Shown here piece by piece: positions 49,395 through 55,905 of a DNA stretch of 64,000 nt. Source of the stretch: Escherichia coli (GTDB taxonomy: Bacteria > Pseudomonadota > Gammaproteobacteria > Enterobacterales > Enterobacteriaceae); NCBI RefSeq assembly GCF_030384885.1, contig NZ_CP128613.1; one strand, given 5' to 3'. Positions within the stretch are counted from its first letter, which is position 1. The number at the start of each line of letters is the position of its first letter. The translations under genes and the position numbers were made by a program. The notes under the pieces were generated by a model. It worked only from the letters and a program-made list of their open reading frames with translations, did not search any database and was not told the DNA's origin.

Positions 49395-52300
49395 TTAGAA
49401 CGTTTTCTTGAAGTTCAGCATCACACCTTTATCGCTGATACCATCCTCTTTCCAGTGGTAAGCATCCAGATTCAGCGAGCTCTCTTTGCTGCTGTACTTC
49501 ACGCCGACGCTTGCCAGGCTGTTGATACCGCCGCCCTTTTGCCCATCATCGACATTAAAGTGCTGGCTGCCTGCGCCTGCCAGGCTTGCCGTGCGCTGGC
49601 TCTTCGTGTAGCTCAGGTTTGGCCCACCTTCCAGCGTGGCGTTCGCACTCCAGCCGTCTTTGCCTGCGTAGTCCAGCTTCAGCCCAACGATGCTGTCCAC
49701 CGCCGTTTCGCTGCCGCTGTTCATACTCAGGTTAAAGTCTCCGGCATTACGCTCCTGATAACCGCCTTCCAGCGTGTGACGCAGTTTCACACTCGCATAT
49801 GGCGTGATTTTCAGCCCTTCGCGCGGTTCAAAGGTTTTCGCCCCTTCGCTGCGGAACTCCAGGTACTGCTGTTTCACATTCGTGTCTGCCGTCTTACTGA
49901 TGTCGCCGTAAGCCACCGAACGGCTGCTGTCCAGTTGGTGGATATCGTAACGCAGCGCGTTATTCCAGCTCATACCGTTGTCAAAGGACATCTGATGCTT
50001 CAGGCCAAAGAACTGGCTGTAGCCGCCTGTAACACCGTTATCACCCGCTTTCTGCGCACCGTCGCCGTCCAGACGGGCGATACCGTACTCCAGGCTCATG
50101 GTCTGGTTTTCGCTCAGGTCGAGGGTTTTGCGCAGCGCCAGCATGTCGTACTCGGTATTATTCCCCAGCTCTGCACGCGGATCGCCTTTCGCCACCACGT
50201 TAAATGCCAGACCGTTGCCCATCTTCGGTGCGGCGTCTGCCAGCATACTAAAGCGATTGCTTAACACACGCGCTTCGCGGAATACCGTGGTCGCCTGGCT
50301 ACCGCTAATTTGCTTAAGTGCGCTGTTCAGCTCTGCAGTGGTGCCGACGTTCAGACTGGTATACAGCTCATTGTTGGTGTAACCCGCATCCAGCGCTTTT
50401 GCCACGTCATTCACTGAGGCATCCGTCGCCACATCGGTGTAGGCTTTTTTGCTCATGGTCACGTCAACGTTGCCGCTGGCGTCGGTACTGCCTGTCGCCT
50501 GCCAGACAACAGATGTCGAAGTGATCGCTTGCGCATCGGTCAGGTTGCTGCCTTGCACCACATCATCAAAGCTGACGGTTTTGTCCACCGTTCCCGCCGC
50601 AAAAGCGGTGTTGATCTCCACGCCATTCATACTGGCGTTATTGACCATCAGCTTACCGGCGCTACCGTCGGCGTTCGTCCCCACCACGTAACCATTGAGG
50701 TTGTTCATGCCATCGTTGCGGCTAACGGAAGAAGAATGGCTGCCGTCGTATGGCGTAATGGTGGGTTCTTCCGGCGCGGTAAAGTCGACATAGTGTACTT
50801 CCGTACCGTCTCCCCCTTCGCCACTGCCCTCTATCGGCGTGCCAGATTGTTTAATCAATCCGGAACCATTCACGTTGTCGTCAATATAAACAGTGCCGTT
50901 GTTAACAATATGACCATTGCTCCCGAGCTTGCTGAAGGCGAAGGAGTTATTGGCGTAGATATTAATCGTACCGTTGTTTTCAACCACACCATCCGCTTTG
51001 GCGTCCGATGCTAATTGCATCCCAATCATGCCTGTTTGTGTCGTGCCTTCGCTGCCGACATTGATGGTGCCATTGTTAACCATTTTTGCGCTGCCGTGCG
51101 CATTCATGGCGATGGTATTATTTTTATCAATATTGATAGTGCCATCGTTAATTGCCCGGCTACCGGCGTTATTATTTGACGTCGTAACCTGGCCGTTAAT
51201 CACACCTGTCGTACCGTTATACAATGTATGCCCATTACCGCCGGTAGCGATATCAGCATCCCCATTCACTGTACCCCAGTTGTTGAAATGCCCAGCCCAA
51301 AGTCCGTTATCAAGAAGATCGACAACACCACCGTCCAGGTTATTGAAGGTCGCGTTTTTATCAACCGAACCACTATGAACCGTTCCTGCGTTATTGAATG
51401 TGGCTGCGGCAGAAAAATTCACTTTATTGACCGTTCCACCCGCTTCGTTATTCATCACGGCAGAAGCAGAGGCTCCCTTCCATGCTGTTACCGTCCCGGC
51501 GTTATAAAACGTACTGGCCCATTGTTCAACAGTGTTGATAGTGCCGGAGTTGTTGATAACAGAACCCGCAACGGTTGTACCTACTTGCCCGGTCACTACA
51601 CCTTCGTTAGTAAACACGCCGCCATCCACAGAAACGGTTTTTGTCGTGCCCTGGTTGGTGTATTCCCCACCCGTTGCAATATCAACCTCGTTTATACTGC
51701 CCGTGGTTTCATTGACCAGATGACCAAAGTCAGCCACGGTGACAGGCCCTCCGGTTACGGTACCCGCGTTGGTTACCAGGGTTTCAGCGGTCGCTATCAT
51801 ATCAGTAGAACCACCGGATGAAGACAGGTTAAGCGTCTCCCCCTCGGCCGTAATGATATCGCCGTTTCTCCAGCTTAATGAAACGAACCCATCAGTCGGG
51901 TTATAGGCGTTACTGTCCTGGCATATACCAAAAGTACAGATGGTTCCGTAATTAACGATAGTCCCGCTGCCATCGTTATAGAATGCCTGCCCGTTTTCAG
52001 CATTGATATTGATGATGCCCGTCTGGTCATTAACTGCGGTACCGCCACTATAAACTGCCATACCAACGAGTTTATTCGCCCCCAGGCTGCCATCAAAGTT
52101 CTCATTCTTCTCGAGGTTGATGGTACCCTGATTAACCACCGTATTATCGGTACCGTATGCTGCCATCCCAGCACCTGCATTATAGATAGTGATAGTACCT
52201 GACTGCTGGTTAAGCGCGGTAGCATTTTGCCTTGCGCCACCATAACTGTCCGTTCCTACCGCCATGCCGACACCATAATTTTTTGCATTGCTGCTGCCGA

Positions 52301-54932
52301 TATCGTTGCGTAAGGTGGTGGTATCGTTTTCATCTACCCAGATCGTATCCAGGGTAATCTGGCCTGCATTTGTTACAGTCGAATGATTAATCGCCAGCAT
52401 ACCGACATTACCCCGGCCATACATATCAATAACGCCATTCGCACCATTTAGCGCTGAACCATTATCCTGAGCAGTCATGCCCGTCATACTAACAACGCCA
52501 CTATTAAAAACCGTGGGATCGCTCAATGACAAAGCATTGAACATATTCAAAACGCTATACTGTTCCATCACTTTAGCCGTAATGGTACCGTTATTCACCG
52601 CCGTCCCACCTTCGGAGCTAAAGAAGGCTTTATTACCGGATTCCGGCGATACATCAATTGCGGATGAGTAATCATATTGCTCAAGTAAAACATTACCGTT
52701 ATTCGTTGCAACGGAACCCGTACCCGATATATTGGTAAACCCCATATTCCAGAGCTCAACAAACCCGTTATTGATAACTTGTGACCCTGAACTGACGCTA
52801 AGTATTTCTGATGGGTTATTGCCATAATGCGCGTAAACGTCAATATCCTTCATACTGAAGGTCGCATCCTCCGTGATTTCAAGAAAAGCATTATTGCTTA
52901 CCTGAATAATATTTGCATAGCCCAGCGGAAATTGACCGCTGACTGAGGAGTCTCCTCCCAGATAAACCGACGAATGACCATCAACCTTAATGAGCGGAAT
53001 ATCACCATAGCCCGTACGACTTGCGGCTGGGACTGAACCATCCGTCATAGCCGATGCTTCACCGAAAAGTTGAATACCCCCCCGTAAGGTAACGCTATTT
53101 TCATCCCCTGAAATCACCAACCCACTGATGTTTTCTTGGCTACCATTGACAGTACTATAGGTGTGATGCGCAAGTTCGCTATCAACCTTCAATGTTAACT
53201 GACCATCCAGCGTCAGGTCATTATTGTTACCCGAAACACGAATACCTACGGAAGAATCGAAAAAGTGTTCTGCTGCATTATCAGTCGTCTGATCTTTATC
53301 CACCATAATATTACCGGTAATTTCAACTTCATTGCCATCACCGGCCACATTTACCCCTGTAGCAACACTGCCAGTCACATTAAGCTCATTCGTTGCCAGC
53401 GTCATGGTGTTATTATTTCCAGACACATCCAGACCGGTTGAATAATCCCCAACATCCATACGGCCAGCCAGAGAAATTTCGCCCCCATCTCCAACAACGC
53501 GAATCCCGGTACTGGCATTTCTGGCAGTGATATCCCCCACATTGATAAGAGTAGAATGATTACCCTCAATCAGAATCCCTGTCGCATTGGCCTCTGAACT
53601 ACCATTACTGACGGAAATATCCCCCCTGTTAATGAACGTCGACGCATCACCACTGAGAGAAACACCCAGCGAATTTTCATCCACGACCGTTATATTGCCT
53701 TTGTTGCTGACGATCGCGCCATTACCCTCAACATCAATACCCCGAGCAGCATTGCTAACGTATAAATCCCCTTCCTGTATAACCGTCGCATTATTACCAA
53801 CGATTTTGCTGCCCGTTGAATTTTGCCCATCAACCGTCATATGTCCTTTATTATCGGTCCTGACATCATTACCGATAATAAGGGCCCCTGTTCCACCATT
53901 ATTGACGGTGGAGTCGCCAGTGTTATTTAAGATTGTACGATCGCCATTAACGATAACCGCCGTGCCAGCATCGACCACCGTCTGACCGTTATTATTAATG
54001 GTTATATTATCGCCGGTCAGGATACCGACCACCGAATCTTCACCGACAGCCTCTGTTTTACCCTCGTTTGTCAGCGCAATGTTGTCACCATTAATCATCA
54101 TCACTGTACCGCCATTCAGGGCCGTGTTGCCGCCCTGGTCAGTGATAATTGCATCATTAACGGTAATTATTCTGCCCGTTGTTCCATCAGACACGACGCT
54201 GGCTAACTGTGTGACGTGGAGTTTACCTTCGTCATCATAGCGCCATTCCGTATCACCAGTGGTACTCACTCCACTAAAGATGGCGGTATGAGTCTCTTCA
54301 TGGTTTTCCCACTCAGTCACAATGGTTTTTCGGCCATCTTTTGCCGTCAGCGTGTAGCTACCATCTTCATTTTGGGTATAAGTGAACGTCGCCCCGCGAA
54401 TCTTCAAGGTTTGCGCGTCCTTGTCCCATGTCACATTGTTTTCAAAGACAACGGGTTCTGTTCTCGGGGGGTCAACATCATCATCGCTATTGTCGGGTGG
54501 AGTAACATCACCGCCTTTATCTGGGGGGGTAACATCATCGGCGTTATCTGGCTTTACAGGTATATCTGAATCTTCATCACTGGGAAGGGGTGGCGGTAGA
54601 GAGCCATTATCATCTGGCGGTATGGGCTGGGAAAAAGAAGAGTGAGCAGAATGATCATTGTCATGAGACAATTCAATCACTGCGAGTGTTGCCAGTACCG
54701 CCGTGGCACCTAATGCCAGTAACGAGCTGAAACCATTATTTGTAACAACAGCACATTTTTCTGGCACTGTTTTCAACTTCATTGACGGTCGGGCGTGCCC
54801 TTCTGACTGACATGTCATTTGAGAGCTTCTGCGCATACTGTCTGCACTCTCGCCTTCTGTTATTTCCGCCCCCCAGCTTTGGCCACTTAACGCTATAGCG
54901 ATACACGCTGATAATAACGTTTTCTTTTGCAT
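49395..54932 (-). CDS. ydbA: Autotransporter YdbA, uninterrupted 1845-aa reading frame (beta-helical passenger plus C-terminal beta-barrel translocator)
   Basis: Signal peptide; Pro/Asp-rich N-terminal repeats; long Gly/Asn/Thr-rich degenerate repeats typical of beta-helix passengers; C-terminus ends ...MLNFKKTF (terminal aromatic) as in autotransporter barrels. One continuous ORF, no IS sequences inside. Confidence 0.85.
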   Translation of the reverse strand: MQKKTLLSACIAIALSGQSWGAEITEGESADSMRRSSQMTCQSEGHARPSMKLKTVPEKCAVVTNNGFSSLLALGATAVLATLAVIELSHDNDHSAHSSFSQPIPPDDNGSLPPPLPSDEDSDIPVKPDNADDVTPPDKGGDVTPPDNSDDDVDPPRTEPVVFENNVTWDKDAQTLKIRGATFTYTQNEDGSYTLTAKDGRKTIVTEWENHEETHTAIFSGVSTTGDTEWRYDDEGKLHVTQLASVVSDGTTGRIITVNDAIITDQGGNTALNGGTVMMINGDNIALTNEGKTEAVGEDSVVGILTGDNITINNNGQTVVDAGTAVIVNGDRTILNNTGDSTVNNGGTGALIIGNDVRTDNKGHMTVDGQNSTGSKIVGNNATVIQEGDLYVSNAARGIDVEGNGAIVSNKGNITVVDENSLGVSLSGDASTFINRGDISVSNGSSEANATGILIEGNHSTLINVGDITARNASTGIRVVGDGGEISLAGRMDVGDYSTGLDVSGNNNTMTLATNELNVTGSVATGVNVAGDGNEVEITGNIMVDKDQTTDNAAEHFFDSSVGIRVSGNNNDLTLDGQLTLKVDSELAHHTYSTVNGSQENISGLVISGDENSVTLRGGIQLFGEASAMTDGSVPAASRTGYGDIPLIKVDGHSSVYLGGDSSVSGQFPLGYANIIQVSNNAFLEITEDATFSMKDIDVYAHYGNNPSEILSVSSGSQVINNGFVELWNMGFTNISGTGSVATNNGNVLLEQYDYSSAIDVSPESGNKAFFSSEGGTAVNNGTITAKVMEQYSVLNMFNALSLSDPTVFNSGVVSMTGMTAQDNGSALNGANGVIDMYGRGNVGMLAINHSTVTNAGQITLDTIWVDENDTTTLRNDIGSSNAKNYGVGMAVGTDSYGGARQNATALNQQSGTITIYNAGAGMAAYGTDNTVVNQGTINLEKNENFDGSLGANKLVGMAVYSGGTAVNDQTGIININAENGQAFYNDGSGTIVNYGTICTFGICQDSNAYNPTDGFVSLSWRNGDIITAEGETLNLSSSGGSTDMIATAETLVTNAGTVTGGPVTVADFGHLVNETTGSINEVDIATGGEYTNQGTTKTVSVDGGVFTNEGVVTGQVGTTVAGSVINNSGTINTVEQWASTFYNAGTVTAWKGASASAVMNNEAGGTVNKVNFSAAATFNNAGTVHSGSVDKNATFNNLDGGVVDLLDNGLWAGHFNNWGTVNGDADIATGGNGHTLYNGTTGVINGQVTTSNNNAGSRAINDGTINIDKNNTIAMNAHGSAKMVNNGTINVGSEGTTQTGMIGMQLASDAKADGVVENNGTINIYANNSFAFSKLGSNGHIVNNGTVYIDDNVNGSGLIKQSGTPIEGSGEGGDGTEVHYVDFTAPEEPTITPYDGSHSSSVSRNDGMNNLNGYVVGTNADGSAGKLMVNNASMNGVEINTAFAAGTVDKTVSFDDVVQGSNLTDAQAITSTSVVWQATGSTDASGNVDVTMSKKAYTDVATDASVNDVAKALDAGYTNNELYTSLNVGTTAELNSALKQISGSQATTVFREARVLSNRFSMLADAAPKMGNGLAFNVVAKGDPRAELGNNTEYDMLALRKTLDLSENQTMSLEYGIARLDGDGAQKAGDNGVTGGYSQFFGLKHQMSFDNGMSWNNALRYDIHQLDSSRSVAYGDISKTADTNVKQQYLEFRSEGAKTFEPREGLKITPYASVKLRHTLEGGYQERNAGDFNLSMNSGSETAVDSIVGLKLDYAGKDGWSANATLEGGPNLSYTKSQRTASLAGAGSQHFNVDDGQKGGGINSLASVGVKYSSKESSLNLDAYHWKEDGISDKGVMLNFKKTF

Positions 54933-55578
54933 GAGAAATCCTTTTCAATGAATGACATTTCAAATAATAAAATATGAGTAACAGATAAGAAATAGCCACA
55001 GGCTGTGTCATGATTTAATGTCTGCTCTTGAAATTTTATTTAGCAATCCCAGAACATTCAACTTAATTAGTATTTCGAAACCTCAATGCAGACACATAAA
55101 AAACAAATTATTCGATTACTTAGGCTATTTGTTGCATTAATACACATCCTCTAACAATAATCAGACAAAAAGCAATGTCAGCGTCAAATTGGGTAGCTGA
55201 TTCATATTACTGATCACTCCGTAAATTCATTCATCGTGAAAATATTAACATTTAAACCATGTTCCATTTAATCAACCCACTGAAAATCTGGAGGTTATCT
55301 ACTGCGGTTTGTTGTTGACTGCCCCTGATAGGATTACCAGGCGTTGACAGAAGATGAGGCTTGCAAGATGCTAAAAACAATGTGGTGTTACAAGCAATCC
55401 CATAAACCTCGTAACTTCACTTAAATGAGCGATGCCGTCCATATTTGGGTTGACTATAAAAATCCTTAATATTGAGGTTGATGATGATATTCATGATGGC
55501 GTTGGAAAAATAGGACACCCATAAAATATCTATACAGCCTTTAAATTAAATCATTGAAATATCGCTGTTGCATAGTGC

Positions 55579-55905
55579 TTATTTTTGCAACCATTTTCCG
55601 TTAATTCCCTGCACATATTCCCCCGGTTTGGCCCGAGCTACAAGCTTTTGTCCGGCAAGCTTCGCGATATCATCTACCGATACATTATTTTGCTTTGCCA
55701 GTTGTTGATAACTCACTTTACGTGCGGCATTAATCTCGGTTACTAATTTCTCTGTTTCAGCATCCGTTTTCAACGCAACCAAATAACCATAAAATGTTTC
55801 ACCTACCCGCCCCTGAGTTCTGGCTTCATCCAGAGTCAATGCCATTACATTGCTGCTTACCAGCCCAACAAGAAACGCACAAAGAAGTAATGTTTTCTTC
55901 ATCAT
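55579..55905 (-). CDS. ydbL: YdbL (DUF1318) periplasmic protein
   Basis: ORF 55579-55983; start at MKKTLLLCAFLVGLVSSNVMA gives 108 aa with signal peptide. Confidence 0.82.
   Translation of the reverse strand: MMKKTLLLCAFLVGLVSSNVMALTLDEARTQGRVGETFYGYLVALKTDAETEKLVTEINAARKVSYQQLAKQNNVSVDDIAKLAGQKLVARAKPGEYVQGINGKWLQK

Follow-up and report, generated by a model that had tools for sequence, protein, structure and literature searches.

The window analysed here, a stretch of 64,000 nucleotides (nt) of Escherichia coli DNA (RefSeq contig NZ_CP128613.1), carries on its minus strand an intact autotransporter gene of the ydbA/bigA family (49395..54932; 1845 amino acids (aa), from the list of open reading frames (ORFs) and the translation). 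Near its N-terminus the encoded protein contains a short Pro/Asp-rich tandem repeat. Very probably, this is a degenerate, in-frame, three-unit repeat in a disordered, acidic, Pro-rich linker, which changes in copy number by whole units and serves as a spacer. It is an ordinary but real length-variable repeat of a surface protein. A rare, intact ydbA allele owes a length polymorphism of 9 residues to the repeat, whose practical consequences for the window are small. The window's own copy is modest; more interesting by-products of the analysis are the family-wide pattern of repeat variation, purifying selection on the repeat unit and a second hydrophobic segment in the same N-terminal region.

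The repeat in the window and its length variation

The repeat proper occupies 54468-54551 on the minus strand and consists of three head-to-tail, in-frame units of 27, 27 and 30 nt: PDNADDVTP (unit 1, aa 128-136, 54525..54551), PDKGGDVTP (unit 2, aa 137-145, 54498..54524) and PDNSDDDVDP (unit 3, aa 146-155, 54468..54497). A first-pass annotation of this DNA, made from the sequence alone, had reported an imperfect in-frame tandem repeat at 54440-54620, which on the coding strand translates into aa 105-165 (PPDDNGSLPPPLPSDEDSDIPVKPDNADDVTPPDKGGDVTPPDNSDDDVDPPRTEPVVFE) of the 1845-aa ORF. The strings that it cited are present on the plus strand, aacatcaccgcc at 54505-54516 and aacatcatcggc at 54532-54543. 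A repeat search returned 3 copies with spacings of 30 and 27 nt and unit identities of 64-80%, and by hand count units 1 and 2 are alike at 22 of 27 nt. In an ungapped self-match of the segment the top lag was 27 (score 21), and the runner-up was 57, which is the sum of 27 and 30. When the codons of the segment were permuted in 5000 trials that preserved composition, the maximum score averaged 8.9 (standard deviation 1.5) and one of the 5000 shuffles attained the observed lag-27 score. The repeat is not a product of chance or composition, and its annotation as an imperfect in-frame repeat was correct.

Length variation was examined in the window's allele type, defined by a match to the N-terminal 650 nt of the gene over most of that length. 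This allele type is rare, being found in 17 of 5426 complete E. coli genomes. The matched stretch is 651 nt long, the length in the window with its three units, in four of the 17 genomes, and 624 nt, exactly 27 nt shorter, in the remaining 13. The three-unit alleles are 98.5-99.8% identical to the window and the 624-nt alleles 92-94%. The register of the indel was read from two of the 13 shorter alleles, aligned with the window: both 2-unit alleles lack GCCGATGATGTTACCCCCCCAGATAAA, one 27-nt unit in register, which is flanked by the direct repeat CCAGATAA (54516..54542, minus strand; alignment and sequence check). Between units 1 and 2 there are 5 differences in 27 nt, far above the 6-8% divergence of the flanks between 2- and 3-unit alleles, which favours a deletion; loss of a unit in the shorter lineage would be a more parsimonious reading of these sequences than a recent duplication in the window's lineage. 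Frame-switching by repeat length was not found, the unit lengths being multiples of 3 and the indel 27 nt. With such unit lengths the repeat itself cannot give on/off phase variation. The segment had been proposed as a candidate site for length variation between strains, and this proved right: four and 13 genomes of the same allele type differ by 27 nt, and 2-17 units are present in other alleles. An absence of periodicity and one and the same length in every allele had been named as the outcomes that would speak against the proposal, and neither was observed.

Two homopolymers lie in the repeat, a G7/C7 tract in unit 1 (54523..54529, codons Thr-Pro-Pro) and a G6 tract in unit 3 (54466-54471, Asp-Pro-Pro codons), given as G on the plus strand. 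These tracts in units 1 and 3 are potential frameshift sites. No length variation in the homopolymers was seen across four ungapped 3-unit alleles. In one protein from a short-read assembly (P0006) the frame shifts near the G/C tracts, which may represent a sequencing error. Assemblies and gene callers may disagree at the repeat site.

Arrays in other alleles and selection on the unit

Other ydbA/bigA alleles vary widely at the homologous position, always by whole units, so that the comparison of copy number among ydbA alleles recommended by the first-pass annotation gave a positive result. In the O157-type alleles of E. coli the unit is PPDDGGDTPV, present in 7 copies in EDL933, in 15 in L26, and in 5 and 2 in metagenomic proteins; the matched spans are 808, 751, 718 and 661 nt, and their differences are sums of 27- and 30-nt units. 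The SMS-3-5-type alleles, found in 44 genomes, carry about 5-17 copies of the unit PDDGGNT, and their spans (904, 883, 862, 841, 799, 757 and 652 nt) all differ by multiples of 21 nt. Escherichia albertii has 4, 7, 8, 13, 15, 16 or 17 copies of DDGG[DN]VTPP, and within one 90% cluster the proteins range from 1796 to 1913 aa in steps of 9 aa and are otherwise near-identical. The 9-residue unit of E. albertii (DDGGNVTPP) is the same unit as PDKGGDVTP of the window. Tandem Repeats Finder (TRF) scores of the long O157-type, SMS-3-5-type and E. albertii arrays are 278-679, and these arrays do have the high inter-unit identity of a frequently slipping locus; the long arrays analysed in other E. coli lie at 3352-3697, 2790-2999 and 2559-2999 of the fetched loci L006, L004 and L005, respectively. 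The K-12 linker is degenerate like that of the window, and TRF calls nothing in it.

Judged by these alignments, the window array is an eroded, low-copy form of a family-wide variable-number repeat with a consensus of about PPDDGG[DN]xTP. The N-terminal linker of BigA/YdbA proteins is thus a variable-number repeat of 2-17 copies across E. coli, E. albertii, Salmonella and Enterobacter. Whole-unit change occurs even within clonal groups (O157:H7, E. albertii), and the repeat could therefore serve as a typing marker. The O157 array was considered as a possible identity of the locus Vhec1 of multiple-locus variable-number tandem-repeat analysis (MLVA), and this was rejected since Vhec1 has 21-45 repeats versus about 7 units in EDL933.

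The units of the long arrays differ from each other almost exclusively at synonymous positions. In SMS-3-5, 15 identical unit peptides are encoded by 7 DNA variants, with 320 synonymous and 0 nonsynonymous pairwise codon differences; the corresponding numbers are 32 and 0 in EDL933, and 185 and 24 in L26. The SMS-3-5 array requires at least 7 separate synonymous changes, and of the single-base changes possible in the unit about 24% are synonymous. By our own calculation, an all-synonymous outcome under neutrality has a probability of about 0.24^7, or roughly 4e-5. Across genera the PPDD core is conserved with flanks only 26-45% identical, and in the family alignment P106 and D119 are invariant and D107, D108, P117 and D120 nearly so. 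The near-absence of nonsynonymous differences indicates that the unit peptide is under purifying selection whereas the number of copies can change freely. The units of the window's allele have diverged from one another as peptides. Purifying selection on the unit suggests a specific role for it in a family of candidate adhesins. The literature mentions BigA only as a candidate adhesin or a pseudogenised one, its passenger being AIDA-I-like and its barrel of the NalP type, and no description of the N-terminal repeat of BigA/YdbA was found in the searchable literature under ydbA, BigA or Z2322.

N-terminal architecture of the family

The units lie within an acidic linker, first His-rich and then Pro/Asp-rich, that spans aa 89-160 in the translation (54453..54668, minus strand). 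It has 72 residues, 22% Pro, 24% Asp and a net charge of -16. Directly after it comes the BigA_N domain (Pfam PF25784, 'BigA and YdbA N-terminal beta barrel') at aa 161-241 (54210..54452, minus strand; E = 2.8e-26, 91.9 bits against a cut-off of 24.5). The placement of the repeat near the ydbA N-terminus in the first-pass annotation agrees with this domain and with the orthologous position of the gene between ydbL and pdxI. AlphaFold2, run on aa 1-330 with a shallow alignment of 15 sequences, gave a predicted local distance difference test (pLDDT) score below 50 for nearly all of aa 1-155, with about 33-49 in the linker itself; from about aa 160 it exceeds 90, and there the BigA_N beta-strands are followed by regular beta-helix rungs. 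This model is consistent with a linker that is disordered or extended.

An exhaustive search with aa 1-275 over 1.84 billion representatives found 41 proteins, and a word-indexed homolog search just 9, mostly fragments. The family is narrow and enterobacterial; its named members come from E. coli, E. albertii, Salmonella Typhi (BigA) and Enterobacter cancerogenus (BigA). All 14 long representatives inspected have an acidic Pro-rich repeat linker between a hydrophobic segment and BigA_N. The common order is signal peptide, Cys pair, second hydrophobic segment, Asn/Asp/His/Gly patch, acidic Pro-rich repeat and BigA_N. Among 15 aligned members the linkers are 33-164 aa long, with 11-27% Pro, 23-35% Asp plus Glu, 0-3 Lys plus Arg and a net charge of -10 to -37. 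Pfam gave no model on the first 160 residues even at E <= 10, apart from noise, and neither an extended signal peptide region (ESPR) motif nor another leader family was found in Pfam at the N-terminus.

A Sec-type signal peptide is predicted from the sequence at aa 1-22 (MQKKTLLSACIAIALSGQSWGA; 54867..54932, minus strand). It has a basic N-terminus, a hydrophobic core and small residues followed by an acidic stretch, and these features are conserved across the family alignment. A lipoprotein signal was considered for 'LSAC' (aa 7-10) and rejected, as the Cys is just 10 residues from the start and the lipobox is not conserved (LSVC, ISIA). Next comes a conserved segment bounded by Cys41 and Cys60 (54753..54812, minus strand; family alignment). 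Both cysteines are invariant in the 15-sequence alignment, with other members reading CPxxI..L..LPxxC.

The second hydrophobic segment lies at aa 67-88 (GFSSLLALGATAVLATLAVIEL; 54669..54734, minus strand; translation verified). Its Kyte-Doolittle 19-residue mean is 2.03 at aa 70-88, and it is present in all family members, with an invariant G75; Lys/Arg precede the segment and acidic residues follow it. It is more hydrophobic than the signal peptide, and such a membrane-like stretch is unexpected inside an autotransporter passenger. It may be an anchor, a second signal core or an element of another kind. Between this segment and the Pro-rich repeats lies a His/Asp/Asn-rich patch, SHDNDHSAHSS (aa 89-99, 54636-54668, minus strand), which is kept in kind across the family (DDDNHHHNN, DDDDHHHRNN, NGGHSHHHSS) and could be a candidate metal-binding site. 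The NVT of the E. albertii units was considered as an N-glycosylation sequon and discarded, the Asn being missing from most alleles.

Proposed explanation and alternatives

In the explanation that we favour, the linker would join the leader region (signal peptide, Cys-pair segment, hydrophobic segment and His/Asp patch) to BigA_N, the first folded domain. Misalignment between direct repeats, by replication slippage or unequal recombination, would add or remove whole units; the frame would be kept, so that the linker is lengthened or shortened but the gene is never switched on or off. Rates of copy change are expected to be high for near-perfect arrays and low for the degenerate array of the window. 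The pattern of variation suggests slippage as the mechanism. In the protein, the linker would most likely act as a polyanionic spacer, flexible or extended, at the N-terminal end of the passenger (presumably the distal tip), with its length free to vary and its unit sequence constrained. Composition, position, length tolerance and predicted disorder all argue for a spacer function.

Several points weigh against this explanation. The first-pass annotation had suggested a tandem-repeat finder as a check, and TRF made no call in the window at a score of at least 30, which indicates that the array is short and degenerate; the periodicity itself was borne out by the self-match at lag 27. The high inter-unit identity that frequent slippage at a hypervariable locus requires is not seen in the window array, and with units only 64-81% identical slippage should be rare there. 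Only two length states were found for this allele type and they track sub-lineage; this speaks for a single old event and not for rapid slippage that still goes on. That other alleles strictly conserve the unit peptide argues for a linker that is more than a passive spacer. Low AlphaFold2 confidence from so shallow an alignment is no proof of disorder. Finally, no experiments on YdbA/BigA secretion, topology or function were found in the literature.

The missing TRF call, the limited identity of the units and the compositional bias of the whole linker would also fit a repeat that is merely apparent, that is, a chance similarity in a Pro/Asp-biased low-complexity stretch with neither a duplication history nor slippage potential. 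This is almost certainly wrong. The composition-preserving codon shuffle attained the lag-27 score in only one of 5000 trials, natural alleles differ by exactly one unit in register, and at the homologous position E. albertii and other E. coli have long, near-perfect arrays built from the same unit. This reading is effectively refuted by these arrays together with the in-register indel of 27 nt. It is possible, though somewhat unlikely, that the units form a sequence-specific module, for a divalent metal, a host or envelope ligand or as a target of Thr-Pro modification, whose copies tune avidity or dose. Peptide identity is indeed kept while the DNA diverges synonymously (320 versus 0 in SMS-3-5, 32 versus 0 in EDL933), the PPDD core is conserved across genera, and a conserved His/Asp patch precedes the repeats. 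However, a strict structural requirement fits poorly with 2 to 17 copies of units that are 7 to 12 residues long, the units of the window have themselves diverged as peptides, and selection for composition and charge could explain part of the synonymous-only pattern. Databases did not assist this reading either. Pfam was empty on the linker for three N-terminal leader-plus-linker sequences, and a PDB sequence search with the O157-type linker plus BigA_N gave no significant match to the repeat part, where the single weak, non-significant match was to the Pro-rich repeats of bile-salt-activated lipase (E = 1.4); the sole E-value under the threshold (0.0002) fell in the BigA_N part, and no individual stretch passed alone.

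Two further roles have been weighed for the linker as a whole. As an immunodominant surface epitope, the repeat would change in copy number under selection for antigenic variation, as argued for the GGXXP repeat of pertactin. In favour of this role, disorder is predicted for the linker, surface exposure would follow if it is retained on the mature passenger, its copy number varies greatly among close relatives (near-identical E. albertii proteins and the O157:H7 lineage), and pertactin polymorphism is concentrated in a comparable repeat (PMC1459169). Yet the unit sequence is conserved and not diversified, copy number alone alters epitopes little, frequent pseudogenes (K-12, O157:H7, 2014C-3075 and 2020CK-00188) argue against strong immune-driven selection, and no serological data were found; we regard this role as very unlikely. 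A biogenesis tether, in which the hydrophobic segment anchors the protein transiently in the inner membrane, or forms the true core of a signal peptide that is cleaved late, and the repeat spans the periplasm during threading, appears highly unlikely, although the architecture is conserved family-wide and the conserved segment, with a Kyte-Doolittle mean of 2.03, has Lys/Arg before it, acidic residues after it and a conserved (T/A)-L-A end in E. coli-type alleles. The conventional Kyte-Doolittle value for membrane-spanning helices is about 1.6, which this mean exceeds. An ordinary-looking signal peptide is already present at aa 1-22, no ESPR or other leader family was detected there, the region lacks a confident AlphaFold model, and a five-fold range of linker length fits a distance-matched span poorly. 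In its mode of action such a tether would be comparable with a spacer of the TonB type, or with the delayed release that has been proposed for extended signal peptides of autotransporters. As an unlikely and more speculative extension, the acidic repeat may be half of a conserved N-terminal BigA/YdbA module (signal peptide, disulfide-type Cys pair, hydrophobic segment, His/Asp patch and repeat), in which the hydrophobic segment would serve as a second anchor, or as a signal core that is cleaved late, and the sequence-constrained repeat would be functional, for example metal-binding or an envelope-spanning tether. If so, copy number would tune reach or secretion timing, and the 3-unit array of the window would be a degenerate survivor of a functional element.

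Comparison with known systems

In-frame variable repeats in autotransporters and other surface proteins are well known, and pertactin is the textbook case, its repeats forming a loop that protrudes from the beta-helix beside the RGD site. In pertactin of Bordetella pertussis, the copy number of the GGXXP repeat differs between strains and makes up most of the allelic polymorphism (PMC1459169). Pertactin and the window protein both have a classical (type Va) autotransporter passenger in which a short tandem repeat, in frame and with Gly/Pro in it, gains or loses whole units with the frame preserved. The two repeats have no sequence homology, however, and in the window the array has just 2-3 degenerate units, is strongly acidic, and lies N-terminal to all folded domains and after a conserved hydrophobic segment.

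The order of domains, from signal peptide to BigA_N and then beta-helix, BigA_beta and a putative C-terminal barrel region, is that of BigA of Salmonella and YdbA of K-12. The gene also shares with K-12 ydbA its chromosomal position upstream of pdxI, but is intact in the window and broken by insertion sequences (ISs) in K-12. The protein differs from BigA in its score (992 bits versus a cut-off of 3400). The allele is rare and is mosaic relative to its nearest kin.

The inner-membrane protein TonB has a Pro-rich region of alternating Glu-Pro and Lys-Pro. Like the linker, it is a proline-rich, charged, repetitive and length-tolerant segment between an N-terminal hydrophobic segment and a folded domain. 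The linker is purely acidic, however, and the protein is predicted to be exported to the surface, so the analogy would extend to composition and position alone. With simple-sequence contingency loci (phase variation) the repeat shares a slippage-prone site in a surface-protein gene, whereas its copy changes (27, 27 and 30 nt) bring no on/off switch. The G7 tract in unit 1 could in principle cause frameshifts, yet no variation was seen in it.

The gene and its locus

The gene product is 99.8% identical to RefSeq WP_106907510.1, an 'autotransporter domain-containing protein' encoded between ydbL and pdxI. In addition to BigA_N, Pfam detected the beta-sandwich BigA_beta (PF25783) at aa 1414-1497 (E = 5e-24), near the C-terminal end of the passenger. 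The NCBIfam model NF033178 (auto_BigA) aligned to aa 245-1845 of the protein at profile positions 309-1874 of 1875. Its score, 991.8 bits, is under the curated cut-off of 3400; therefore, the protein is classed as a BigA/YdbA-family autotransporter and not as BigA proper. There was no Pfam autotransporter-barrel match at E <= 0.01, though the protein aligns to the end of the auto_BigA profile. Its C-terminal ~400 residues are 97-100% identical to RefSeq entries named 'autotransporter outer membrane beta-barrel domain-containing protein'.

The window is collinear with E. coli 2013C-4282 (NZ_CP027579), with 99.97% identity over 12.65 kb, and the gene order in that strain is ydbJ-hslJ-ldhA-ydbH-ynbE-ydbL-[this gene]-pdxI(ydbC). 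The position directly upstream of pdxI (ydbC) matches that of K-12 ydbA, and identifies the gene as lying at the orthologous position. The other flank differs, with ydbL in 2013C-4282 and paaY in K-12 (paaXY-ydbA-pdxI). The next annotated upstream gene is ydbL both in the window (about 55000-55580) and in all fetched non-K-12 E. coli loci, and in K-12 paaX and paaY stand directly upstream of ydbA. On the K-12 map the fea/tynA/paa cluster lies between ydbL and ydbA, and it appears to be absent from that position in the window's lineage.

The ydbA-type gene is intact in the window, while K-12 ydbA is a pseudogene broken by IS2 and IS30. O157:H7 EDL933 and 2020CK-00188 have a split gene and 2014C-3075 a frameshifted one. 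Strain L26 has a ydbA-type gene annotated as a full-length coding sequence, with an IS1 directly upstream of it. The K-12 ydbA passenger carries several near-identical copies of a roughly 100-residue repeat (…NNNGKTTVDGKDSTGTEINGNNGKVIQDGDLDVSGGGHGIDITGDSATVDNKGTMTVTDPES…), from about nt 2600 of the locus onward. This larger repeat is a second repeat system of the gene family, and no equivalent was noticed in the window's allele.

The central passenger of the window protein is mosaic (about 51300-53400, minus strand; aa about 500-1200). Per 100 residues, identity to the 2-unit allele of EC42405 is 43-66% in the middle of the protein, 97-100% in the C-terminal ~400 residues and 95-99% near the N-terminus. 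This pattern suggests recombination between divergent alleles. Three further small indels relative to the EC42405 allele, of 3, 1 and 2 aa, are located at aa 766, 897 and 1253, respectively.

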